Below, one piece after another: positions 4,401 through 63,814 of a DNA stretch of 64,000 nt. Under the pieces are notes generated by a model that saw only the letters and a list, made by a program, of their open reading frames with translations, was not told the DNA's origin and made no database searches. Source of the stretch: Chrysomallon squamiferum (lineage: Eukaryota; Animalia; Mollusca); contig CM022679.1 in NCBI GenBank assembly GCA_012295275.1, positions 17,980,001 to 18,044,000 of the forward strand, in the 5' to 3' direction. The position numbers and the translations under genes are program-made. Each line of letters begins with the position of its first letter. Within the stretch, counting starts at the first letter, position 1.

Positions 4401-5092
4401 ACAGAAGTTTTTCAAGTTACAAGCAATCGCCAGTTGATTTTTTGCTTTGATTTGTGAGCAAAAATCTGAGTTACGAGCGAGTGTCAGATACTCCACCGCT
4501 AGTTGGTGCGACAAACAGCACAACAACTAGCCAGCATACCATGTCTCACTTGTTTTTTTCATGTGGTTACCTTGCCATGGAAGCATTTCTGTTGTGCTCG
4601 CGTTTTGTGCAGTATTTTGCCAAATTTCCATGGATCCCAAGAAAGTGAGTGCAAAGGACAGTGCTGAGAAGAAGAAGTGGATGATGTCCATTGACTTAAA
4701 GCTTGAATTCATAGAAAAACATGAGCAAGGTGTGGATGTAGTCGACTTGGCTAGGCAGCATGAGCGTAGTACTTCTGCGATATGTACCATACTGAAGCTG
4801 AAGGAATCGATAAAGGCTGTAACTCCAGCCAAAGGCGTTAAAATAATTTGTCTGATCTCCAAGATTCATACACTTTACAAAACCAATTTATTTCTTTACA
4901 TTCTCTTTTATTTTGTTCTTATATAATATTTGTCATTTATAAATGCATTTTTCTTATATGAAAACATGTTGCAAAAACAAAACAGAAACAATCAAATGGG
5001 GTGTTTTTTGGGGGAAATTGATTTGATGTACAAGCAAATTGAGTTATGAGCTTGGTCATGGAACGAATTAAACTCTTAAGTCAAGCTATCTA
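4401..5092 (+). mobile_element. Tigger/pogo non-autonomous element retaining the N-terminal CENP-B/psq HTH coding segment
   Basis: ORF MDPKKVSAKDSAEKKKWMMSIDLKLEFIEKHEQGVDVVDLARQHERSTSAICTILK; GAGTTACGAG-type subterminal repeats; homologous to the copies at 6797 and 19287. Boundaries approximate. Confidence 0.8.
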
Positions 5093-6796: not shown

Positions 6797-7632
6797 CAGT
6801 GATACCTTGACTTACGAGTTTTCTGTGTTAGGAGCATTTGCCTGGTTGATTTTTTGCTTTGAGTTGGGAGCCAAAATCCAAGTTATGAGTGAGCTTCAGA
6901 TACACTGCACCTACTTAGCGCAAAGAAGAACACGACATCCAGTGAGAAATCCCACATCTCACTTGTTTACTTCACATGGTGATCTCGCCCGTTGAAGCAT
7001 CTCTGTTGTGTTGTGCTTGCGTTTTGGGCAGTAGTTTGCCAAATTTCTTTTTTCTGACCATGGATCCTAAAAAAGTGAGTGAAAGGACAGTGCTGAGAAG
7101 AAGAATAGGAATCATAGAAAAGCATGGAATCATAGAAAAACATGAACAAGGTGTGCATATAGTTGACTTGGCTAGGCAGTACAAACATAGTAGTTCTGCA
7201 ATATGTACCATGAAGCAGGAGGCAATAAAGGCTATAACATTAGCCAAAGGCATTAAAATAATAATATACTTTACAAAACCAATTTATTTCTTTACATTCT
7301 TTCTTATTTTATTTTTATATAATATTTCAACTGTTGTAATATAATAAATTTTCTATAATAATAATTATGCTTTCTTTTATTGATTTAATTTTACATCACT
7401 GATATTTTAATAAATTTTTATGCATATTGTCAGGAAAAATTTGCCTGCCAGTACTTAATATCTGTCATTTATAAATACATTTTTCTTATTTCAAAACACA
7501 TTGCAAAAAAAAATGGACTGGTATTTTAAGGGCTGGAATGGATTAATGGTATTTCAGATAATTTCAGTGGGGAAAATTGATTTGTTATATGAGCAACTAG
7601 AGTTATGAGCTCGGTCACAGAACAAATTAACT
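6797..7632 (+). mobile_element. Tigger/pogo element, copy 2, with an ~130-bp insertion at ~7330-7455
   Basis: TA|CAGTGATACCTTGACTTACGAG left end; HTH remnant IIEKHEQGVHIVDLARQYK. Confidence 0.8.
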
Positions 7633-8488: not shown

Positions 8489-11016
8489 TTAAATAGTTTG
8501 TATCAGTCTTTGAGTTGTTTTTCGAGCACGTCTAGGATATCTTGGGGTTGATGGTATTGGTAGTTGCGGTACATTGTCAACAGTATCATTGATGGCATTA
8601 GAAGTAACCGTTCTGTTTTTCATCTCAGTCTCTTCCACCTGAACGGTTGGTTCAACAAATTCCATATCAGACTTGGTACCAATTGCAGACAGTTCTGGGG
8701 AAGTGTTCCTATTATCCTCCAAATGCACATATTTATTAAGTTGATTCACTTGTCTTTTACACACAAAATCTCCAACTTTCACTCTGTAGGTAACAGGCCC
8801 TAGCTGACACAGTACTTCTCCACTTGTGTACTCCAAAAATGATTGCCAGTGCTTCTTTATCAATTTGGGAATACTTGCGTTCTGCTGATGTCAGAGTTCT
8901 AGAAGCGTATGCTATTGGCCTATCCGATCCTTCATTTCCATGTGATATTACCGCTCCAAGACCATGCGCAGATGCATCTACTGCCAACATTACTGGTTTC
9001 ATCAGGTCATAGTGGACAAGAATTTTAGATGATGCTAACAGTTTTCCATTTTTGTTCACTATAAATGCAAAGTACTCAACTTCATCTTTCATCATTGCAC
9101 ATTTGGACCTTTTCAGTTGAATTCCATATTTTTCTAGGCGTTTCAAAGTGTTTTTCAAGTGTTCAATGTCATCCTTTCCAGTGACTATGATGTCATCCAA
9201 AATGTAACCTACACCTTTTAGCCCTTGAAGCATTTTGTCCATCGTTTGTTGAAAAATAGGCACTGCAACTCCAAATGGCAACCTTGTATAGCGATAAAGT
9301 CCAAGGTGAGTATTGATTGTGACAGTTCCTCAACTCTTCATTAAGCAACACTTGCTGGTATGCATGTGACAAATTCAGTTTGGAGAACTTTTGTACTCGG
9401 GCACTTCCAACACAGGATTTATGGTAACCTTGTAATCACCACAAATGCTAACAGTTTTGTCAGGTTTTAAAACAGGTACAATAGGAGAAACCCATTCAGA
9501 AAAATCCACCTTTTCTACAATTCCTTCTGCTTCAAGTCTGTGAAGTTCATCAGCAATCTTTTCCTTCAAAGCATAAGGTACTGGTCTAGCCTTGAAAAAC
9601 TTTGGAGTAGCATCCTCTTTCACTTTCAGATGAGCTCTTATTCTTTTACTGTTCCCAACTCATTTGAAAAAATTGAATATCTACTGAACAAATCTTCAGG
9701 GTTTCCACAGGCTTTCATAATCTTAATACTGTTCCAGTCCAACTGAAAGTTTTGGAACCAATTCCGTCCAAACAAAGTTCGTCCATTTCCTTTCACCACA
9801 ATTAAAGGTAAAAGTTTTTTCTGCTTTCCATATTTAACATCACCTCAATTTGCCCAAGGACTGGCACCACTTCATCTGTATAAGTTTTCAACACAACTGA
9901 TGTTGATTTCAATGGCACTGTTTTCTTCAATTTTTCCTGATAACTCTTATTAGAAATTATCGATACAGAAGCACCTGTATCTACTTCCATTCTTAATGGC
10001 ACACCATTGAGTTCCAATGAAATTTGAATTTCTTTCACTTTCGTAGATTTCACTGTGAAAATTGACTGTTCAAAATCACAGTCATTTCTTTCCATTGCAA
10101 CCTGTTTATTTTCAAGAACAGCTTTTATAATTTCTGATTCAGTTTCATTACTTCCAGATTCTTCATGAACCTCATGAATTTTTAAACCTGTTTCAGATTC
10201 AGCATTTTCAATTTATGAATCACTGGTACCACCTTCTGATTCCGTAAGGTCCCTATCAGAATCTTGATTCACAACATTAAGTTTAGAATTTTTCTTTTTC
10301 AACTTTTGGAATTTCTTTTTCCATCTGTTTGCTTTCCTGTCTTTCTATTTTTTTCTTTTGATTTCGACTTTTTCTACTCAGGTGTCCTGTTTCATTACAC
10401 TTATAACAGTTTGCCTTTTTCTAAATTAGTTTTACCGCACCAGAAGCATTCAATGACAGAAACTTTGTAGAACTTTTCCGTTTCTGATTTCATTCCAATT
10501 TTCAGCATGTCAGTTTCTCTAGCTGTCATTTCCATACTAACAGCTATTTGCAAGGCTTTCCACAGTGATAAGTCATGTTCAGAGAGAACTTTTTTTCTGT
10601 ATTGACTTTTCAGACAGACCACAGACCAAAATGTCTCTTAATGCTTCAGTCAAAAATGCACCAAATTCACAGTGTTCTTTCAATTTTCTTAATTCTGCCA
10701 AAAATTCACTTAGTCTTCTCTCCAGGCTCTGTTGATAGAATTTGAACCGTTCCGCAGTCACCAAAAGTTTTGGTTTGAGATGGTTTCCTATCAAGGTTTT
10801 CAATTGTTCGTAAGTCTTACTTGCTGCTTTCTCAGGCAAAGTCAGATTTTGAATCAACCTGTAAGTCTTGGCACCACATACGGACAACAAAATGGAACGT
10901 TTCTTTTCGGCATCGTCTACATCATTCGCCAACAGATACTGTTCCAAACGTTCGATGTATTCATCCCAATTGGAACTTTCTAGATCAAACTCTTCAACTT
11001 TACTGTAGGTAGCCAT
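8489..11016 (-). pseudogene. Frameshifted gag-pol of the LTR element
   Basis: gag MATYSKVEEFDLESSNWDEYIERLEQY; truncated knuckle CFWCGK; protease EVDTGAS; RT (PKFFKARPVPY, ICGDYK, MPFG, ILDDII); RNase H VDASAHGLGAVI/YSQIDKEAL; only the integrase C-tail remains. Confidence 0.92.
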
Positions 11017-11056
11017 ATTTCATAAATAGTTAATTTCAGGAAGTTCAACACGTGTT

Positions 11057-16601: not shown

Positions 16602-16757
<156 letters not shown>

Positions 16758-19286: not shown

Positions 19287-19970
19287 CAGTGGTACTTCGA
19301 CTTACGAGTGCCCCAACTTACAAGTTTTCTGAGTTATGAGCAGTCATGTGGTTGATTTTTTGCTTTGAGTTGCAAGCAGAAATCTGAGTTATGAGCAAGC
19401 TTCAGATACGCAGCTGCTAGTTAGCATAAAACAAACAACACAACATTCAGCCAGCATCCTGTATCTCACTCTTTTAGTTACCGCCTCGCGGAAGCATCTC
19501 TGTTGTGTTTGTGTTTTGTGCAGTATTTTGCCAAATTTCTTTTTTCTGACAATGGATCGTAAGAACGTGAGTGCAAAGGACAGCGATGAGAAGAAGAAGC
19601 AGACGCATTAAAGCATGTAATCATGTGAGGAGTGCATATAGTTGACTTTGCTACTGCTAGGCAGTACAAGTGTAGTACTATATTGAAGCAAAAGGAGTCA
19701 ATAAAGGCTGTAACTGTAGCCATAGGCATTAAAATAATTTGTGTGATTATCAGGATAAATACACTTTACAAAACCAATTTATTTCTTTACATTCTCTTTT
19801 TTATTTTTTTTTTATATAATATTTGTCATTTATAAATACATTTTTAAATTATGGGGTTTGGGGGGGCTGGAACAGATTAATGTTTTTTCAGTTAATTTCA
19901 GTTGGGAAAATTGATTTGATATACGATCAAATTGAGTTATGAGCACAGTCACAGAACAAATTAAACTTTT
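19287..19970 (+). mobile_element. Tigger/pogo element, copy 3
   Basis: TA|CAGTGGTACTTCGACTTACGAG left end; HTH remnant HIVDFATARQYKCSTILKQKESIKAV. Confidence 0.82.
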
Positions 19971-26109: not shown

Positions 26110-27000
26110 TTCTCACAGCTTTCAGTTGAAATGCAAAAGTTTTCAATGTGGTTGTATGACTCGTGGGTGATTTGATTGATTTTATGGTGCCACCCTTCCA
26201 AGTGGTTATTTGTCTGGTGACTGTCACTGCCAATGTGGTTCCACATTGTTGGAGTCTATGGCCCTTCTATCCAGGTGTTAGTGGCATAGTCCATGAGTAA
26301 TGTTAACTTTTCATTCTGGGGACTGTTGGCAATTGTGTCAGCCCAAATATGCTCAACTTTGTCCAGCAGGTCCATCAGAAGGGCTGAAGCACACCTTACT
26401 GTCTTTTGTAAATCATTGTTTTCAATGTATTCTGAAGCCAGTCCTCAGTCATGTGGTGGGGAATACAGTGCATACAGCATTGTGAGTAGTTCTCTCAAAG
26501 TCCATCTGAAACATCCTAGGAGTGAAATGGGTAATGTTTTGTGGCGTTGTCAGTATAGTACCATCTTGATGGCACTAAAATGAGGAATCTCAGCTAACAA
26601 ACTGCCAGGCACAGCTTCATGATTCTTGCTCAGATTGGAGATTTCATAACCATAAATCTTCATAGTTTGTGTAGTTTCCATTTTAGCCCGGTCAGTGAGT
26701 TTTGCCTTGAATGTGTCTACGTGCTTAATGAATGGCACTGCTGTATGGTTGAGCTGCATCTGTTTTGCCATCTACAACATGTTGTCTACAGTCACAACGT
26801 ATGCTGTGTACTGCGCGTTAACACATTCCCAATGATTATATTCTCTTGCCATTCTTTTATTTATATGAAATGTATGCTTGTTATAATATAGATGCCTGCT
26901 GCCTTGTATTGTATCAATACAAGTCACTTGAACCTGTTCAGCTGCCATTATATTAAATGTGAAAGCATTTCCCATTTTGATGCAAAACTTTATGTAGATT
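26110..27000 (-). mobile_element. Mutator-like (MULE) transposase remnant with an N-terminal FLYWCH-type zinc finger
   Basis: Minus-strand GSRHLYYNKHTFHINKRMAREYNHWECVNAQYTA..LNH, and by hand translation of 26160-26297 MDYATNTWIEGP*TPTMWNHIGSDSHQTNNHLEGWHHKIN (MULE WN..RTNNxxEGWH motif); in-frame stops present. Confidence 0.8.
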
Positions 27001-30000
27001 AAACAGGAAAATCCTACAATGCGCAAGCACCTGCTAAATCAAACACATTTAAAAATGCAATCCAGGATAGTAATCCTTTAAAACAGTAGAGACCAATATG
27101 AGTGAAATAAAACAAAACTGAGGAAAAAAAGAAGAAATAACAATAAAACATTAAAAGAAAAGAAAACACACACACAAGTGTCTGCTCAGTTGCTACCCCA
27201 AACAGTAGTGTTGTTGGTGTCAGCCCGGGACATAGAAAGTCCTATCTTATGTAGTACCGGTTTTCCGAATTATTAATGTCCAGGAAGTAGAAGGAACTAA
27301 TTGGTTTGTATGTTCTGCATTGCAGATTGAGTAATATTTTCTTTGAGTTTTATCACTTAAGGTGCCTAAAAAAGGATGGTTGCTAAGGACTTTTTAAGGT
27401 GAATGGACTGTCTCCAGTTGGCTAATTTCAGTGGCTTTTTTCTCAGTATTGCAATAGAGAACACTAAAAATGTCATATCTTTAGGAGTTTTTGTCCAATT
27501 TGCATATAAGTACGATTTTTTTTCTCCTTTTTCCTGTTATATTTTGTAAATGCATATATGTACTCCTTTAGGAAATATTCATATCTCAATTTCTGTTTGA
27601 AACAAAAATAGATAATATTCAATTATGTTCTTGAACTGATTTGCTTGTTTCAGATATTTCACATTGATTGTTTAAATGTTTTCTGAATTCTTCAACAGAA
27701 ACTGAAGGAATTGTTAATACTTGAAACAGCTCATACAATGCCAGGAAAATGACAATTCTGAATGAGTGGACAAGCAAAATTAAATTCCTTGTTCTTGTGA
27801 ACTGAGTATTTTATTTTTATTTTTTTATATTTTTTATTAACTTAATAATTTTTAGACTTTGTTGTTAATATGTGATACTTCATAAGATACATGAAAGTCT
27901 TTTGTTTTAGTTTTTTTGTTTTATTGTGGGTTTTTTGTTGTTATTTTTTGTTTGATTTTTATTTTATTTTTATAATTCACATGACAGAAATTGCCAGTAG
28001 CTATAATATAAATACTTTGTGTTTGATTCCTTTTGTTGAGAAAAAAATCACGAATTATTCCTGATGATTACTTCACACCAAAGACTGAGATGACCTGACA
28101 AACTCAGTGATGAACAAGCTGCCAGTGTGAAATCAATAACTTATCTGTCATAGATAAGCATGTTTCTCTTCCCTGCCTTGATCATTTGAATCACAGAGTT
28201 TAATTGAAATAGTAACAAAACTGATATTTTAAAAAAAATTTAATTTTTTTTTGTTTCTGTAAAGTTAGACGACTAACTGGATAAAGCAAAAGAAGTATCT
28301 GCATAATGCACCAACATTTCTGTAAAAAAAATAAAAAAAAAAAAAAAAAAATGTATAGTTAAATTGTTAATAAACAACAAAAAGAAAGAACAGAAGAATA
28401 AATAAAGTGTGATCTTTAGAATGATAATTAAAATACTGGCAGGGGAAATTCCATTGCAAACACTAACCTGTTTGAACTTTTTGTTACTGTGTGTATTAAT
28501 GACCCCTATAATAAATTTGACTTCCCCTGTACCTTTAATGACAACTTTTCATAGTGATAGTGACTTACAAAGTTATAGTACATTAAGCTTGAGGTTAATA
28601 CAAACCTATATTTAAAATAAATGTTTATATCAGTTAAGTAAATCAAACATGAGTTTCATTAACAACTGTCTCAGAATTTTTGCTTGTTCTGTATTCAAAA
28701 TTAAAGTTGTGGTTACTTAAAAAGTTAGGTAAATTGAGATATGATGTTATGAAATATATCATATTTTGATTAATGTGTAAGTATCTTTTTCCATTTTATG
28801 CAAATTGTTTTACTAACTAGTAAATATTCCCCTTTACAATACACCTACAGGTTATAGACAGAATTTAGTAGCACGTTCTTTGAGAACAGTGAATTAATCA
28901 TCTAATCTGCCACTCAAGACAAGGTTGGTATTTGCCAGAACTTGAGTAAAAAGCAAATATCTGTTTTGAGGTGGAAGACTGAAGTTTCATGCTTTCCATA
29001 CAATGGCTAAGTGTTTTTTAATTAACATGTGTCTGTCTGTTATTTTACCTTCTAATATACAAATTACTTGTGAAGAGATGATAATGACTTCGAAGGTAAA
29101 AAAAAAGAAAAGAAAAGAATGCACATCAAATATTAAAATCATTCATAAATTGTTTATTACATTTAGAGAGTAAAGTTTTCTTCTTTTTTTTCACCTCCTT
29201 TTTTAATTATTATTATTATTGTTTTAAAGTTTCAAAGTTTTTTGTATAAATATTTCATTGATTTTAAATAAGTTTGGCCACAATTCATTTATTGAAAATG
29301 CTGGCTAATTGTATTCTTGGTTTAGTTTTTTCTTGCATCCATCTACTAATAACATAAAATTCATTGTTTGTGAATATAATCTTTCAGACATGTCAAATTT
29401 TCTTGCAACAAATTCAAGTTTGGTAATGCATAGAATTTTTAAAGCATTAATTAATTTTAAATACTATTCAGACAAGCCATCATATTGACATCCAAATGTG
29501 TGGTCAAGAATCTTTCTGTCAGGTGTCTCTGTAGAAATTGTTGTAGCTGCAAATGAATATGTCATGTGCTGAAGAAGCTAAAGCTAGTTGGCAGATTTAT
29601 GTTTCCATTATAGTTAAATATTTTATGTCTGCTTCTAATACATATACTTAATATTTTTAAATCATCATTTTCTAACCATGTCTGTGTTTATAAAAGCTCT
29701 AGGGCATTTAGCACTTCTACAGTGTCTGCAAAACTGCAACTGTCTATAGTCCATATTCTTTAATTAGTTTTCATATTTTTTTCATAAACACTATTTTCTG
29801 ATATTTCTAAAAATTTATTTTGGTTTTGTTGTGAATAAATAAAACAAAAGATATTTTATAATAAATCTGAAGTTCAGTGCCATTCCACCTTGCATTTCTG
29901 GAACCAGTGTTATATATGCTGGCTGTGAGTGAAATTTATTTATAATTATATTAAATTGACAAACAAAACGTTTTATTTTTGAGCCTTGTCATCTCTCCTT

Positions 30001-39300: not shown

Positions 39301-39355
39301 TTCGATTACACGACAGTATTCAGGATGAAGGATTTCATTATTTAGTGTTTGATTT
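39301..39355 (+). CDS. CaMKII: CaMKII exon 4 (55 nt): (V)RLHDSIQDEGFHYLVFD(L)
   Basis: tttcag acceptor; |gtaagt donor; in frame with neighbours (phase 1/2). Confidence 0.97.
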
Positions 39356-43517: not shown

Positions 43518-43583
43518 GGTAACGGGTGGTGAACTGTTTGAAGATATTGTTGCTAGGGAATTCTACAGTGAGGCAGATGCCAG
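43518..43583 (+). CDS. CaMKII: CaMKII exon 5 (66 nt): VTGGELFEDIVAREFYSEADA(S)
   Basis: ctttcag acceptor; AG|gtaatg donor; phase 2/2. Confidence 0.97.
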
Positions 43584-47173: not shown

Positions 47174-47246
47174 TCACTGTATACAACAGATCTTAGAGGG
47201 TGTGAACCACTGTCATCAAAACAATGTAATACACCGGGATTTGAAG
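47174..47246 (+). CDS. CaMKII: CaMKII alternative exon 6a (73 nt): (S)[24 protein letters not shown]
   Basis: tttcag acceptor; AAG|gtaact donor; same length and phase (2/0) as 6b; HRDLK intact; not represented in the supplied ORF track. Confidence 0.9.
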
Positions 47247-48472: not shown

Positions 48473-48545
48473 TCACTGCATGCAGCAAATATTAGAGAGT
48501 GTTAATTATTGTCATCAACATGGTATAGTACACAGAGATCTCAAG
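48473..48545 (+). CDS. CaMKII: CaMKII alternative exon 6b (73 nt): (S)[24 protein letters not shown]
   Basis: ctttcag acceptor, putative branch point CTCAT (A48447), AAG|gtaagt donor; visible within ORF 48390..48707. Confidence 0.95.
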
Positions 48546-48562
48546 GTAAGTCGTTTACATGT

Positions 48563-48706
48563 TGTCCAGGTCCACATGCATTCAGCGAGTTCTTGCTTTT
48601 TGGGATACATACAGGTGTGTGTGTTGATAGATCATATGATAAACAAATTTATCTCAGTGTTAGGAAAGAAGAAACAGACTTCATTAAAAAAAAGTGTAAA
48701 AGTGTA

Positions 48707-48753
<47 letters not shown>

Positions 48754-48845
48754 TATTACTTAATTTTAAATTGTTGAGGAGGATAAAAATTGTTTTGGTA
48801 GGAATTGCAACAGGAGATAATGAACTCGCTGTGTGTTGCTGGATA
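48563..48845 (+). promoter_or_regulatory. Predicted intronic stem downstream of exon 6b
   Basis: CAGCGAGTTC (48583-92) is the exact reverse complement of GAACTCGCTG (48822-31); outer helix TGTCCAG (48563-69) with CTGGATA (48839-45). Confidence 0.6.
48711..48752. repeat. (TG)21 microsatellite
   Basis: Read directly from the sequence. Confidence 0.9.
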
Positions 48846-51800
48846 TCTGGCTCTAGCCACTTTGTACATTATAGTTAATTTGTCTAAACAAACTTATAAT
48901 GTTCTTAAAATACATGCAGTTGTTGCCTGCTATACCTGACATCTGCAGCTCGGTAGATATTGTTTTGTTATCATTGTTATGATAAATAACTACTTTTAAT
49001 TAACAATTTAAATCACATTATTGACATCAATTTTTTTTTTTTTTTCAAAGCTATAGTGCCATATTCAGTAATGTGTACTGCAGGATTATATTTTTTTTTC
49101 ATCCAGTTTTGAATATTTTATATAATAAATATATAGAATGAAAATTCAACATTATGTATTAATTTATAAACTTGTATTTTTCAGATTTTAATTGTTCTAA
49201 CAGATGTTAGTGTAATACAAATGTCTGTAGCTTGCTTTATGTACTACAGAGCACAATTAACAAAGTTTTGTGAAAGTAGCATATATATGTAACTAACAGA
49301 TTACTATTAATAGGTCAACTATCTGGTAAAATACCAAAATACCGTTAAGACTTACGCTGTTAATATTCACGAAACCTTCTTGTTTGTTGATAGCAACATT
49401 TTTATTTTAACAACAGAGATGATGCTGAGATAACTGAAATGATGAATGAAATATTAGATAAAGATCAGGCACAAAAATGGAGATAAGAGACCACATAATT
49501 ACATAAAAAACCTAGCTAATACACAGTTAATGTCAGATACTGTATACATGATGCACTTGCATTCTTAAAACAAACAAAAAAGACAAAAAACTCAATTTTT
49601 TTATGCCTTTAATTTCAGTGAAATAATTGATACTTTTTTCTTTCTATAAATGTAAGCAGTTATGTATATATTATTTATTTTTCTATACTGGAAAAATAGA
49701 ATTTTAATAAATAATTGAAAAATAATTAGAATTTCAAGTTCATCTCATTTTATATTAAGTTCTAATGTTATTAAAAAAAAATCTTACAATGTAAATATTA
49801 AAAAGTTAAGTATACAAAGAACAGAAGTATGCATACAGTATAAAAAAAAAAAAAAAAATAAAAATTCACCAAATTTTTTTTTTTTTAATCAAGAAGTAAT
49901 ATGTTTGTGGTCTCTTTGGTTAATTGAATCCTATGAATCCAATAAAAATGTATATTTATTTTTTATTAATTGTGTTTACTTAATGGATACAGATGTATAA
50001 TAATAAAGTTTGATTTTATTCTTTCTTTTCTTTGAACAGTACAAAATGTAAAGGTCATATGTTCATTTCTCAAACAAAAGTATTTCGCCAGTTGCTGTTT
50101 TTTACACAGTCAGTTCTTGTATTGATATTTCTCCGACAGTAAACATTTAGAAATATTCTCTCCATAGTAACTATCACTTTCATTATCAAAATATTGTTAC
50201 CTAATTCCTGATATAAATTTAGTTACTAAACTGATGTATAAAACAATGTTTAGTCACACAATTATAACAGATCATTTCTTTCAAACTTGGCATTTTATAA
50301 AATGTTAAGGTATAAGGTCATAAGGCCAGATGTTTTGAAAAAGTGTTTTTTAAATATATATGCATTTGACACAATATTTAAATTAATTGACAATATAAAA
50401 ATTGTGTGTTTTTATCTTGAACTATTAGGATATGATAAAAATGCTCTAAAATAATAAGATTAGAAATCCAATCCGTTTAAGTTTTAGACATATTGTTTGG
50501 TTTTAGATTGTATGTCATTAAAATATTCTACCATTTTTCTAACAATAAGACATGTTTTTTAATATCTGATGACTTATGAATTCTTCTGACTTGTTCATTT
50601 GTAAACCAGTTCTGTGTATGATTATGTCAAGTGTTCTTGTAAAGACTTCTAAGTGGTGTTGTACAGTTGTTGCAGATCAAGTGGATTTCTCCTTACTAAC
50701 ATAAGTGATTAGAGACAACAACACAACATTTGATAATTACAGGCCTGAAAAGGCATACATGTATCGACTGACAAAATAGTACATAACAAAAAGTTTTTAA
50801 TGTTAATTTTCCCTTAACAGCAATAAAATAGATTAATGAAGTTTTTATATTATATAAATGGTATTTAAATTTTGCAAATGAGTAAAAACTTGTCATTTGT
50901 TTTCCAGAAGAATCAAATGTTTCAATGTTTTTCATGTTTGTGGTTTTTTTGTTTTTTTTGGTTTGTTTTTTGAAGTGTACTAATTGTAGTTATAAAGTAT
51001 TTAAAAAAAAAAAATTAAGTAAGAAAAGAAAAAGTAAAAGAAATATCAAAATATTTTTTTATTTTTATTATATATTTTCCATGTTTTTTTGTAACTAAGA
51101 AGTATGATAATGGTTAATTTGATTTTGATAAGGTGAGAAACTAATAAAGTCAGGAAACGGTGGAAAACATGTTACATTCAGGAAATTAATTAAGTGAATT
51201 TTAAACAAAAGCAAAAGCAGATGTTTTTAAAGGTCAGAAGACAGAAGTTTGTAAAAGCAAAAGATTAAAATGATTTTAAATTTTATACTTCCTGTTAAGA
51301 AATACACAGTTCATGTAAGTCTGTATATATACACACACATACATACACACACAAAAATGAAGAGACAGATTCAGAAGCAGTTAATGTAGCATCAAGTAAT
51401 GTAAACATACAAGTAAATTCTAAAAGATTTATTTAGAATTTAATTAAATGAATTATACATTTATAAGACTACACATATATATATAATTTTATCAACACAT
51501 TTGTGATTTAACAAAGGACAAAAGACATTTACATTTTTATAGTTGAATGCAATTAAGTTTTTTAATATTAACTATTTGAAATAATTGTATACAGTAGTTC
51601 TTCAGGTTTTGTTTAATTTTTTCTGTTGTTTGTTCTTAAAACTGGTTTATTCTGTCAAGGTGACTGTTGCTATGTTGGTGGTCTCTTGTTTTACTAAAAA
51701 GGAATCTTTTGAGACAAGTAAAGTTTGACTGATATTTTCAATCTTTAAATGTTTATTCAGGTTAAAACATCTTTGTCTTTTTTTCTATTTTATTTGGTGA

Positions 51801-52588
51801 AAACATCTTTTGGGAATTTATTTACTGTTTGTTTTCTATTTTAATATCTCTATGATGATGGATATTTTATTTTATCAGTTTCTATAATGAGTACAAAAAT
51901 TAAATATTCCTGCTAAATGCTTTAAAACAGATTGGTGCTATTTTCATACACTGATACTTACTTCTTCTGTATTCTTTTTTCACAGAATGTGCAAGATTCT
52001 GAATTGCTTAATGTAATGTTAAATGTATGGAACAAGTCAAAAGAACTGACTACATGAGTTGATAATTTTGTTTTAAATCTTAAATGCCATGAAATGGATT
52101 AAAAGTCATAACTATCAAACAGAATAATTTTTTGCACTCTTTTTGGTAGCAGATATATTTTTTAAAATTGGTCTTAAATATGTAATTTTAAGAAACTATA
52201 TATATTTTTAAACATTAATTTAGAAAATTAGTTTTGCTTACAATTTTTAATTGAAATATGAATATATGAACACATTATTGCAAATTATTATCAATTTATC
52301 AACAGCTACAAATTAATTTAACAAATTCAGATAATTTTCCAATAAAATTGTTTTGTTCAAATGACAGTAAAATTAGGTAAAATGCTAAAAATGAGAGATT
52401 TTAATCTATGTTTTGAAAAATATAATTTTCAAAGGATTTGTTACTGTTTACATTTATGTTTATTATGCTATTATTCTGAACCAATTCTGCCAAACTTTTG
52501 TATAACCTGTCTAATTTTTATTTACTTTTTTTCTCTCTTTTTTTTTTTTTTTTTTTTTTTTTGTATTTTCCTGTGTTTAATGCTTTAG

Positions 52589-52691
52589 CCTGAGAACCTG
52601 ATTTTGGCGAATAAAGTTGGAAGTCCTGCAGTCAAACTAGCTGATTTTGACTTAGACTGTGAGGTGCATAGATACAAATATTTTAAAGCAG
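52589..52691 (+). CDS. CaMKII: Putative CaMKII alternative exon 7a (103 nt): PENLILANKVGSPAVKLADFDLDCEVHRYKYFKA(G); DFD variant with GC donor
   Basis: Long poly-T tract + tttag acceptor; open frame; 17/34 aa identical to exon 7b; the equivalent end point falls on CAG|gccatg. Could be a decayed exon. Confidence 0.65.
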
Positions 52692-55309
52692 GCCATGTCA
52701 AAAATAATAATAATAATAAAAGAAAAAATTAAAAAAAAAAAATTAAATGATCAATTCTCATCAGTATTTCTCATTTCCTGCCTGGCTGAATATTTTGGCA
52801 AATGCTCTCTTCCTTTAAAAATTTGGTAAAAAGGAAAATTGATAATTATCAAAAAAAACAAACCAGAAAACACCCAGAATTCTTTTTTCGTATTAAGAAT
52901 ATATAAATTTTTATTTATTTCTTAATAAGTTCAGATGAAAATTTACAAAACATTGTTTCATTGATTTCTAAATGAATAATTTATTTCTGATCCACACTTA
53001 TTTTTTTATTTTTTATTTTTTTAAATTAATTTAACAATCAAAGTTCATTTATATCTATTTATCATAATTCATTTCTAAAAAGTTAAATTATTTATTTTAT
53101 TTTTTTATATATAAAGTTTTTGAAATGCAAACAAAAAATATGATTGTATTTTTTTTCTTTTCTTATCTTAATATTATTTCATTTCCTACTGAGTTATTAC
53201 ATTTTTATCAACATATTTTGTTAGTTATTTTTACCTTAAAATGAAAACATTTAAAAATATATTCATATGGTGAATAACAAAAATTCAAATACAAAACAGT
53301 TTTGTAATAACATGGTTTCTAAGCCAAATTTAACATGGGCTCTGATGAAAAGTGAACATTGTTTTCTAATTTATTTTTTTGATGTGGCCTCCTGTTTATG
53401 TTGTTGAGTTTAGATCTGTATATCTGTAATGCATAGATTTAGATTTTTCATTAACATTAATTTTAAACAGACTCCCTAAACATTTTTATTTCGCATTTAG
53501 GTAATTTTTTATTTGCAGAAATTTAATACAATGCATAAAGATAAAAAAAAAATATTATTTAGGTCAAATGTTTTTAAAACATTATGGTTCATCAGTAGTA
53601 ATAATATTCATTTTTTAATTTTAAGATTTTAATTATTTATCAGCTTAAATTCTTAATTTAAATTAGTTAAAGAAAAATGCATACATTTATTGTGAAAAAT
53701 GATAAGAATATGACAAACAGTAAATTATTGTAATCATATTTATTCTTTTTCATGGGAAATTGTTAATGTGGGCAAATGTTTACCTTCATAGAAAAAAGTT
53801 TTTGTTTCTTTATCAACTTTATTTGTTTGTTTTTTTGTGTGGTTCAGAAGGAAAGTCAGTGTTTTAGGGGGGTTAAATGAAAATAAAATGTCTATGAATA
53901 CACAGTGTGAATGTGTGAACCACAATGTCTGCTGTAGATTGTATAGAATCAGCTTGTTTTCCCACTAAATATACATGTGCCACACTCAGGAAATAAATAG
54001 CTACATCTTATTTTACTATTTGCATACATTACATTCATATAAAGATATGATACATTTCTTTAAAATTACTTCTAAGCAGATATAAATTTAATTTAAGCAG
54101 ACTGTTATTATTATTTTTTCAATTTTAAATTCTAACTACTCAAGTCAGACAAAAAAAAAAAAAAAAAAGAAGAAGAAAAAAAAAAAACCCAGAAAACAAC
54201 CACAAAAAAACCCCCAAACACAACACAATGAAATGTTTGTAGGTTATTTCAAAGGATTGGTGTGTGTTTTTTGAATGTGACTGTGCATGTGATTGTACAC
54301 TCATGCATGAATATGAGACGTATGAAGTATGTTATTAAATCCTTTGTTGTTGATGTATTTTGTTGGGGATACTGACATAAGTGACCCTCAATCCAAAAAT
54401 GCACAGGACAAAAAAGACCCCTCTGAATGAAAAACAAGGTAGTACAAAAGTCACCCCCTCACCAATTAAAAACAAAGTAGTACAAACACTCCCCAACTTA
54501 CAAAATATTCTATCATTGTTTAATATTATCTGTGACATCTAATCATCAAAATCATGGAATTTATGTAATTAGTTATTTGGTCAGGCTTTAAAAAATGACT
54601 AACTTTAAAAGTGATGCATATAATTAGCATATGAAAAATGACATGGCCTATCTTAGAAAATGATTTTTTCATGAAGTCATAATATCCAATGACATTTGGA
54701 ATTTACATCAGCTTTTGGTATTATTTCCAGAAATTATATTCAGTTTTCAAAATGTCATAATTTTATCCCCTGACATTGGGATTTCATTTTTTAAAAATAT
54801 TGTTTTGAATTGTTCTAGTTAAGGAGTAAGAGGGCAAGTATTGATAATTTATTAGAAATATTCCTGAAGTAACTGTTTTTAATTACCTTCAGAAAGTAAA
54901 CGATACTTTAATATGTATCTCATATAATAGAACATATAGCTGAAAGACAGAACCTTGGAGCCTTTGGAACCTGATTGTTCAATATTTGGTTGGTTCTAAT
55001 CCCAGAACAAATGTTTGGATGATTTTCAGTTCTGATTTGACAAAGCAGTATATGAGTATATATATTTTAAGTGATTAAAAATTAAATTTATTCTGTTTTG
55101 AATATTATTAATTACATACTGGGTCTTATCTACACTTTTGAGATGGACTTTTATTATATATTGTCTTCATTGTCAAATTAAAAAAAAAGAAAAATATTAA
55201 TAACATTATATTTTGGATTATAAATATTCAACTTTATAATTTGCCTATAATGTGAGCCACTGCATAGAAAGTAAGCATTTCTCACACAAGACAATAATGA
55301 GATAATCAT

Positions 55310-57873: not shown

Positions 57874-58062
<189 letters not shown>

Positions 58063-59323: not shown

Positions 59324-59542
<219 letters not shown>

Positions 59543-59840: not shown

Positions 59841-60068
<228 letters not shown>

Positions 60069-60323: not shown

Positions 60324-60446
60324 TATCCATCACCTGAATGGGACACAGTAACACCAGAAGCAAAAAATCTCATCAATAGTATGCTTACTGTGAACCCAGC
60401 CAAGAGAATTACAGCATCAGAGGCACTCAAACATCCATGGATATGT
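60324..60446 (+). CDS. CaMKII: CaMKII exon 10 (123 nt): [41 protein letters not shown]
   Basis: tgtag acceptor; |gtaagt donor. Confidence 0.97.
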
Positions 60447-60743: not shown

Positions 60744-60827
60744 CAAAGAGAACGTGTTGCATCTGTGGTTCACAGACAAGAAACTGTGGATTGTCTCAAG
60801 AAATTCAATGCTCGTAGGAAACTTAAG
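60744..60827 (+). CDS. CaMKII: CaMKII exon 11 (84 nt): [28 protein letters not shown], containing the autonomy Thr (T286/287; codon 60783-60785)
   Basis: ctacag acceptor; AAG|gtgagc donor; RQET motif. Confidence 0.97.
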
Positions 60828-63771: not shown

Positions 63772-63814
63772 GGTGCCATCCTGACCACAATGCTGGCAAC
63801 AAGAAATTTTTCAA
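63772..63814 (+). CDS. CaMKII: CaMKII exon 12 (43 nt): GAILTTMLATRNFS, CaM-binding segment with inhibitory T305/T306 equivalents
   Basis: tttag acceptor; |gtaagt donor. Confidence 0.96.

Follow-up and report, generated by a model that had tools for sequence, protein, structure and literature searches.

A shortened duplicate of CaMKII exon 7, spliced ahead of the canonical exon, in the snail Chrysomallon squamiferum

Introduction

In the excerpts of the literature used here, most of the splice diversity reported for CaMKII concerns the linker, and a single exchanged exon, exon 6 of CAMK2D, belongs to the kinase domain (10.1101/721589, PMC12060085). The two vertebrate forms of this exon, 6A and 6B (6v1/6v2), likewise arise from tandem duplication of a kinase-domain exon and are alternatively spliced (10.1101/721589, PMC12060085, PMC9741552). 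According to the cited part of one structural account, CaMKII has no activation-loop phosphosite; its activation segment is ordered without phosphorylation and is held by a hydrophobic cluster (PMC2910593). Variants of the DFG motif are described, again in excerpt, for two other kinase groups. MNK1 and MNK2 carry DFD for DFG, which is linked to a stable inactive conformation (PMC9059116), and the plant AGCVIII kinases (PINOID, D6PK) have DFDLS followed by an activation-segment insertion of 36-118 residues (PMC3499706, PMC10881395).

This article examines a CaMKII locus of the snail Chrysomallon squamiferum within a stretch of 64,000 nucleotides, here called the window. In contrast to CAMK2D 6A/6B, the snail copy derives from exon 7, is cut to 75 nt and is added rather than swapped, and an active-site segment is thereby repeated in one chain. 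MNK kinases have a single, constitutive DFD, whereas the snail isoform also has the canonical DFG 25 residues downstream, and entry of its DFD into the kinase core is only putative. The AGCVIII kinases are an unrelated group, in which the insertion is constitutive and is not a copy of the core; the snail insert measures 25 residues and depends on splicing. No published account of a CaMKII exon-7 duplicate or DFD isoform was found in a literature search that covered few subscription journals.

The CaMKII gene in the window

The gene was delineated by tblastn and a per-exon scan. Its parts are as follows.

16672-63814, plus strand: CaMKII gene span (exons 1-2 and the hub exons lie beyond the window)
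16672-16731, plus strand: exon 3
39301-39355, plus strand: exon 4
43518-43583, plus strand: exon 5
47174-47246, plus strand: exon 6a, from an older duplication of exon 6; 6a and 6b are likely mutually exclusive
48473-48545, plus strand: exon 6b (HRDLK), spliced to exon 7a in RNA
57895-57997, plus strand: exon 7b, the canonical exon 7 (103 nt), which encodes DFG and the activation loop and directly follows 7a in RNA
59361-59444, plus strand: exon 8 (GFAGTPGY...), phase 1 start
59956-60050, plus strand: exon 9
60324-60446, plus strand: exon 10
60744-60827, plus strand: exon 11
63772-63814, plus strand: exon 12

The constitutive residues of exons 3-12 are identical to those of CaMKII from Gigantopelta aegis at 259 of 259 positions, and the next best proteins differ at 2-3; the G. 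aegis protein matches both PF00069 and PF08332. By this match of its kinase exons, the gene in the window is CaMKII. The part of the gene in the window holds no duplicated exons other than 6 and 7.

The exon 6 pair is a subject of its own. Exons 6a and 6b are 73 nt each and share 53 of 73 nucleotides, with pN 0.15 and saturated silent sites. Peptides resembling 6a occur in gene models of Liolophura, Patella, Biomphalaria, Babylonia and Nucella, and by these sequences the pair looks mollusc-wide, in parallel to vertebrate CAMK2D 6A/6B.

Upstream of exon 3, the minus strand of the window carries an LTR-retrotransposon remnant in several frames (about 8490-11020), with matches to aspartyl protease, RVT_1 and RT-RNase H. 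Three short related frames (4531-4923, 6946-7341 and 19369-19608; MDPKKVS...-like), two of which were scanned and gave no Pfam match, resemble Tigger/pogo transposon ends. A weak FLYWCH match on the minus strand at 26775-27038 (E 0.0006, below the cut-off) is possibly a MULE-type transposon fragment.

Position and limits of exon 7a

The duplicate, termed exon 7a, and its surroundings comprise four elements.

52526-52588, plus strand: acceptor region of exon 7a, a long T-run with AG at 52587-88 (sequence and RNA junction at 52589)
52589-52663, plus strand: exon 7a, cassette, 75 nt, phase 0-0 (RNA contigs, G. aegis RefSeq models)
52664-52669, plus strand: GT donor of exon 7a, GAG/gtgcat (the contig end after 52663 goes on with exon 7 letters)
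52664-52691, plus strand: probable decayed 3' remnant, intronic, its homology assumed from colinearity; it contains what had been taken for a rewritten loop and a GC donor

Exon 7a repeats the PEN-beta7-beta8-DF part of exon 7 over 25 residues, the last of which are DFDLDCE, and starts 5306 nt upstream of the canonical exon. The strand names beta7 and beta8 follow general kinase nomenclature, mapped on the strands of the model described below. The two exons agree at 49 of 75 nucleotides and 16 of 25 residues; the remnant agrees with exon 7 at only 10 of 28 nucleotides and one of nine residues. In a six-frame scan of about 127,800 segments of 25 residues, identity to exon 7 above 8/25 was confined to exon 7a (16/25) and exon 7 itself; the likeness is therefore not due to chance.

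The original prediction, made from the letters of the window, had described much of this correctly: a copy at 52589 that follows a T-run and AG some 5.3 kb upstream of exon 7, with 34 codons free of stops and indels, 17 identical residues of which 9 use different codons, and DFD in the place of DFG. All of these are present as described.

Exon 7a has an AG acceptor, a GT donor, a length divisible by 3 and junctions with both flanking exons, as expected of a cassette exon. Its donor, gtgcat, is weak and falls, by the codon table, within the former Val26 codon of exon 7 (GAA GTA). The phase 1 start of exon 8 fits exon 7b, not the 75-nt exon 7a. The Rbfox motif TGCATG is absent from the scanned range 52200-53100.

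RNA evidence for splicing

Five public runs contain the gene. Contigs of the RNA runs X1, X2 and X3, together with those of X5, a run of unknown kind, were compared over 52570-53700, a range outside the 6b-7b skip junction and the exon 8 junctions. RNA support for the junctions of exon 7a comes from the contigs of one run, X1, from one study. The contig depths (44.3, 42.6 and 16.7) are not taken as expression levels. Exon 7a is without contig cover in X2 and X3, and such missing cover carries no evidential weight. X5 covers exon 7a and the intron and does not differ from the window inside the exon; further downstream it differs at 52859 and 52862.

One X1 contig consists of the last 25 letters of exon 6b followed by 52589-52663, and its end before exon 7a agrees with the end of 6b, not with that of 6a. 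A second contig runs from 52634 to 52663 and continues with 28 letters from the start of canonical exon 7. From these two junction contigs it follows that an in-frame exon of 75 nt, with the GT at 52664 as its donor, is placed before exon 7. The junction 48545 to 52589, one of two proposed for checking, is thus found in X1, while none leads from exon 6a (47246). It is almost certain, in our estimate, that 52589-52663 is a real exon, spliced as a 75-nt cassette between 6b and exon 7.

Both junction contigs end exactly 30 letters from the points where the direct 6b-7 path would branch or rejoin; the 30 letters are made up of 25 letters of 6b plus a shared CCTGA on one side, and a shared AG plus 28 letters of exon 7 on the other. 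As this is the break pattern of 31-mer contigs, the skip form 6b-7b is likely present in the same run.

The third contig spans 52634-52995 unbroken and crosses 52691 into the intron.

52664-52995, plus strand: read-through RNA contig (X1 record 2); its frame stops at TAA 52730-32

At 52677, within the intronic remnant, this contig has T for A, an allele or an error seen in one contig.

These records bear directly on the proposal that a 103-nt exon with the GC donor CAG/gccatg replaces exon 7 and yields a DFD kinase whose activation loop is rewritten. The frame is indeed open and the letters of a GC donor stand at 52691 in matching phase, but RNA of X1 leaves at 52663 through the GT, none of the five X1 records branches at 52691, and the crossing contig is unbroken there. 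Moreover, gccatg departs widely from the consensus formed by the other exons' donors, this form is missing among the fetched proteins, and the stretch that the longer exon would add looks unconstrained (pN 0.61). The swap with a GC donor at 52691 is hence rejected as a candidate, and we regard it as barely credible; RNA of X1 joins exon 7a straight to exon 7. The basic, Tyr-rich loop (VHRYKYFKA) foreseen for the product is intronic, and the isoform retains the canonical DFG and activation loop.

Exon 7a is homologous to its neighbour, as are mutually exclusive exons, but its length differs (75 versus 103 nt) and it is co-included. A mutually exclusive exon of the CAMK2D 6A/6B type is rejected on these grounds: exon 7a is shorter and joined directly to exon 7.

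The read-through contig may represent pre-mRNA, a retained intron or a terminal exon. None of the X1 contigs leads into exon 7a from 6a or out of the preceding intron; a DNA source is therefore less likely than partly spliced RNA or a terminal form. Truncating read-through had been foreseen as the fallback to splicing; the AATAAA at 52715, the TAA at 52730-32 and one contig into the intron agree with it, but the contig overruns the AATAAA, reaching at least 52995, and could derive from pre-mRNA in the course of splicing. The ends of RNA molecules are not visible in contigs.

As an off switch set by splicing, without any structured role, the exon would act by either route: the insert would destabilise the catalytic loop, or read-through to the TAA would truncate the protein. 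The read-through contig in X1 agrees with this, as do the low confidence of the structural model even in beta7 and the near invariance of exon 7 in animals, where 22 of its first 25 positions do not vary among 15 distinct fetched peptides. Against it stand the spliced form, which is in frame and yields full-length proteins in the G. aegis models, and the consideration that a mere disruptor needs no conservation of single residues. We consider such a switch unlikely.

Gigantopelta aegis and the range across species

A search with the read-through peptide found one protein among five candidates, CaMKII XP_041363803.1 of G. aegis, a vent snail of the Peltospiridae (Neomphalina). Its order is HRDLK, a 25-residue copy, then the whole of exon 7. 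The insert is identical to exon 7a at 23 of 25 residues, and the identity ends exactly at the GT donor. Since insert and ends are the same, this is an orthologous exon, not an analogy. The insert occurs, without comment, in five of seven G. aegis isoforms (X1-X3, X6 and X7; XP_041363800, 801, 803, 806 and 807), all of them automatic RefSeq gene models; the other two models are an isoform without the exon.

Identity is unevenly spread. The segment AVKLADFDLDCE is the same in the window and G. aegis (12/12), and the two substitutions fall within the stretch that forms the beta7-beta8 loop. Two of 25 residues differ in exon 7a, compared with none of 259 in the constitutive exons (about 0.008, hand calculation), which speaks against strong constraint on the copy. 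The agreement at 23 of 25 may say little by itself. For scale only, the two sequenced peltospirids are reported to have split about 66 million years ago, and the published diversity of G. aegis is 0.0025 (both from excerpts of PMC7736800); at that diversity, a pair of amino-acid changes within 75 nt would hardly be expected inside G. aegis (P about 0.016), and the window therefore probably represents a related species.

Among 231 proteins fetched, 174 of them CaMKII-like, the DFD copy occurs only in the five G. aegis isoforms. It is absent from the isoform clusters of Patella, Liolophura, Pomacea, Biomphalaria and Babylonia among the matches listed, and from all proteins outside G. aegis in the best 120 of 7678 matches of a homologue search. 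Two matches inspected from another 1318 lack the insert. A further search gave 54 matches, none with the copy; the collection searched shows one protein per 50% cluster, and P0001, the long isoform, was itself not recovered there. Haliotis and other vent snails are not among the listed matches, and many isoforms are invisible to such searches. The records suggest, weakly, that exon 7a is lineage-restricted.

Like the snail gene, the CaMKII models A0A1I8GVS1 and A0A1I8GSY4 of Macrostomum lignano have exon 7 repeated ahead of the canonical exon. Unlike the snail exon, the Macrostomum copy (P0009, P0010, P0127) is of full length and keeps DFG, with a diverged activation loop; it is annotated in tandem, and its sequence differs from that of the snail copy. 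The duplicate is probably independent of the snail copy, and its tandem annotation may have come about because the gene predictor joined a mutually exclusive pair.

Two further records have inserts or repeats in this region. P0118 (a JGI record), an arthropod-like CaMKII, carries 11 extra residues, PENLILSEKPK, after HRDLK and before exon 7, and they begin like the snail copy; as this is one record, the insert could stem from an error of assembly or prediction, or it could be a further short duplicate of exon 7. P0187, a kinase fragment of 124 residues, contains three HRDIKPEN repeats 29 residues apart, which are unrelated to exon 7a and possibly an assembly repeat.

Selection and origin of the copy

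The prediction of an old duplicate of exon 7 kept at the protein level is borne out by codons 1-25, which compare with exon 7 at pN 0.24 and pS 0.70, silent sites being near saturation. Codons 26-34, the remnant, have pN 0.61, and an alignment of the 500-nt flanks of the two exons does not rise above shuffled sequences. Constraint hence ends where the RNA leaves.

Within exon 7a, changes are concentrated in the beta7-beta8 loop (one of six residues identical) and after DF (two of five), while PEN-beta7 (6/7) and AVKLADF (7/7) are kept. The copy retains AVKLADF-x-L, its Leu22 through two silent changes. At codon positions 1-2, AVKLADF agrees with exon 7 at 13 of 14 sites compared with 8 of 18 in the remnant (Fisher p 0.005, for a segment chosen after looking); for the whole of exon 7a against the remnant, p is 0.051 at positions 1-2 and 0.007 at all positions. 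The conservation of AVKLADF could be a relic of a mutually exclusive stage or due to splicing enhancers.

Exon 7a would descend from a tandem duplication of exon 7. As the donor sits in the old Val26 codon, a cryptic GT in this codon presumably became the donor after duplication, and the 3' part decayed. Such a history could also leave a tolerated relic: an exon 7 once mutually exclusive with its twin that, after the loss of its donor, is decaying and is still included to no advantage. The weak donor, the decayed remnant, faster change than in the constitutive exons and occurrence in one lineage agree with a relic, and the full-length duplicate of Macrostomum demonstrates that such a starting state arises. 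On the other hand, the frame is open and pN is low over 25 codons next to a remnant and two flanks that cannot be aligned; the ends are the same in G. aegis, and expression suffices to assemble both junctions. A mere relic therefore seems improbable to us.

Fold and mechanism of the long isoform

The long isoform carries two beta7-beta8-DF segments in tandem, DFD first and DFG second (residues 157 and 182 of P0001). The copy supplies the catalytic-loop Asn of HRDLKPEN. The Pfam kinase profile matches through the copy up to profile position 144 of 263. Two registers are conceivable. In register B, the copy would provide PEN and beta7, and exon 7 would provide beta8 and DFG, so that 25 residues are looped out and the active site is normal. 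In register A, the copy would also provide beta8 and DFDL, and the first 25 residues of exon 7 would lengthen the activation segment in the manner of MNK or AGCVIII kinases. The AGCVIII layout is what register A would give, and the snail isoform has DFDL plus 25 extra residues. A kinase of the MNK type proper is rejected, as DFD is present in addition to DFG, not instead of it; the comparison stays a live lead by analogy.

Our preferred reading, to which we assign a probability of roughly 0.45, is that the DFD segment competes with DFG for one slot in the core and thereby lowers or retunes the activity of the subunit. Register A is favoured because core-facing residues are kept and because DFD is a variant of working kinases (MNK, AGCVIII); by sequence and analogy, these two points suggest that register A is populated. 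Were the insert a plain loop, there would be little reason for core-facing residues to persist. Register A would disturb the ordered activation segment of CaMKII, and the proportion of damped subunits per holoenzyme would then depend on splicing. A more speculative extension is a splice-controlled register switch: a single chain with interchangeable beta8-DFx segments would flip between damped and active states and, by way of this intramolecular decoy, tune the holoenzymes of vent snails. We put this forward tentatively, as doubtful rather than probable.

AlphaFold2, run with 49 sequences, chose register B: the strand 142-145 comes from the copy, 177-180 and DFG come from exon 7 (177-184), so that DFG occupies the Mg-binding position of the core, and the insert is looped out, with residues 142-175 at pLDDT below 50. 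The model superposes well on solved CaMKII structures; all 303 residues of 7b56_B fit model residues 6-333 (Z 43.2, rmsd 1.4), and the rmsd to 2vn9_A is 1.1. By this model, an intact active site in the long isoform is possible, which counts against the decoy reading. All three MAFFT alignments placed the relatives on exon 7b and so biased AlphaFold2 toward register B. With this bias, and with pLDDT below 50 in the insert, the model cannot exclude register A. Folding without an alignment gave a pLDDT of only 35.8.

The structural model and its fit to solved CaMKII speak in favour of a chain that adopts register B only, i.e. a normal kinase with a 25-residue surface loop or an extra hairpin between beta7 and beta8; in the hairpin, beta8 of the copy would pair with beta7 of exon 7. 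The acidic, Cys-bearing tip DFDLDCEPEN of such a chain would offer a novel site for binding, for metal or for redox chemistry. The window and G. aegis share the new residues DLDCE without change, and the D-x-D-x-D pattern of exon 7a was created by two separate changes; both agree with a function of the tip. In contrast, no hairpin is predicted in the low-confidence insert, and the retention of D-F and Leu22 is easier to explain by the slot in the core. The calcium-binding motif DxDxDG has Asp at positions 1, 3 and 5 and Gly at position 6. DFDLDC has Cys at position 6 in place of the Gly, and this motif is rejected for exon 7a. A surface loop is possible, in our view, but it is not the reading we would expect, and the same holds for the proposed site at its tip.

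Significance

The catalytic Asn, beta7-beta8 and DFG are all encoded by exon 7, a segment that the expressed isoform has twice. Exon 7a thus illustrates a third fate for a duplicated exon, which is added, and neither swapped nor lost. The narrow species range limits the general weight of the exon. If the insert is only a loop, it marks a site at which the kinase core accepts an insertion. If the two segments do compete, exon 7a would represent natural regulation, by splicing, of a kinase without an activation-loop phosphosite.
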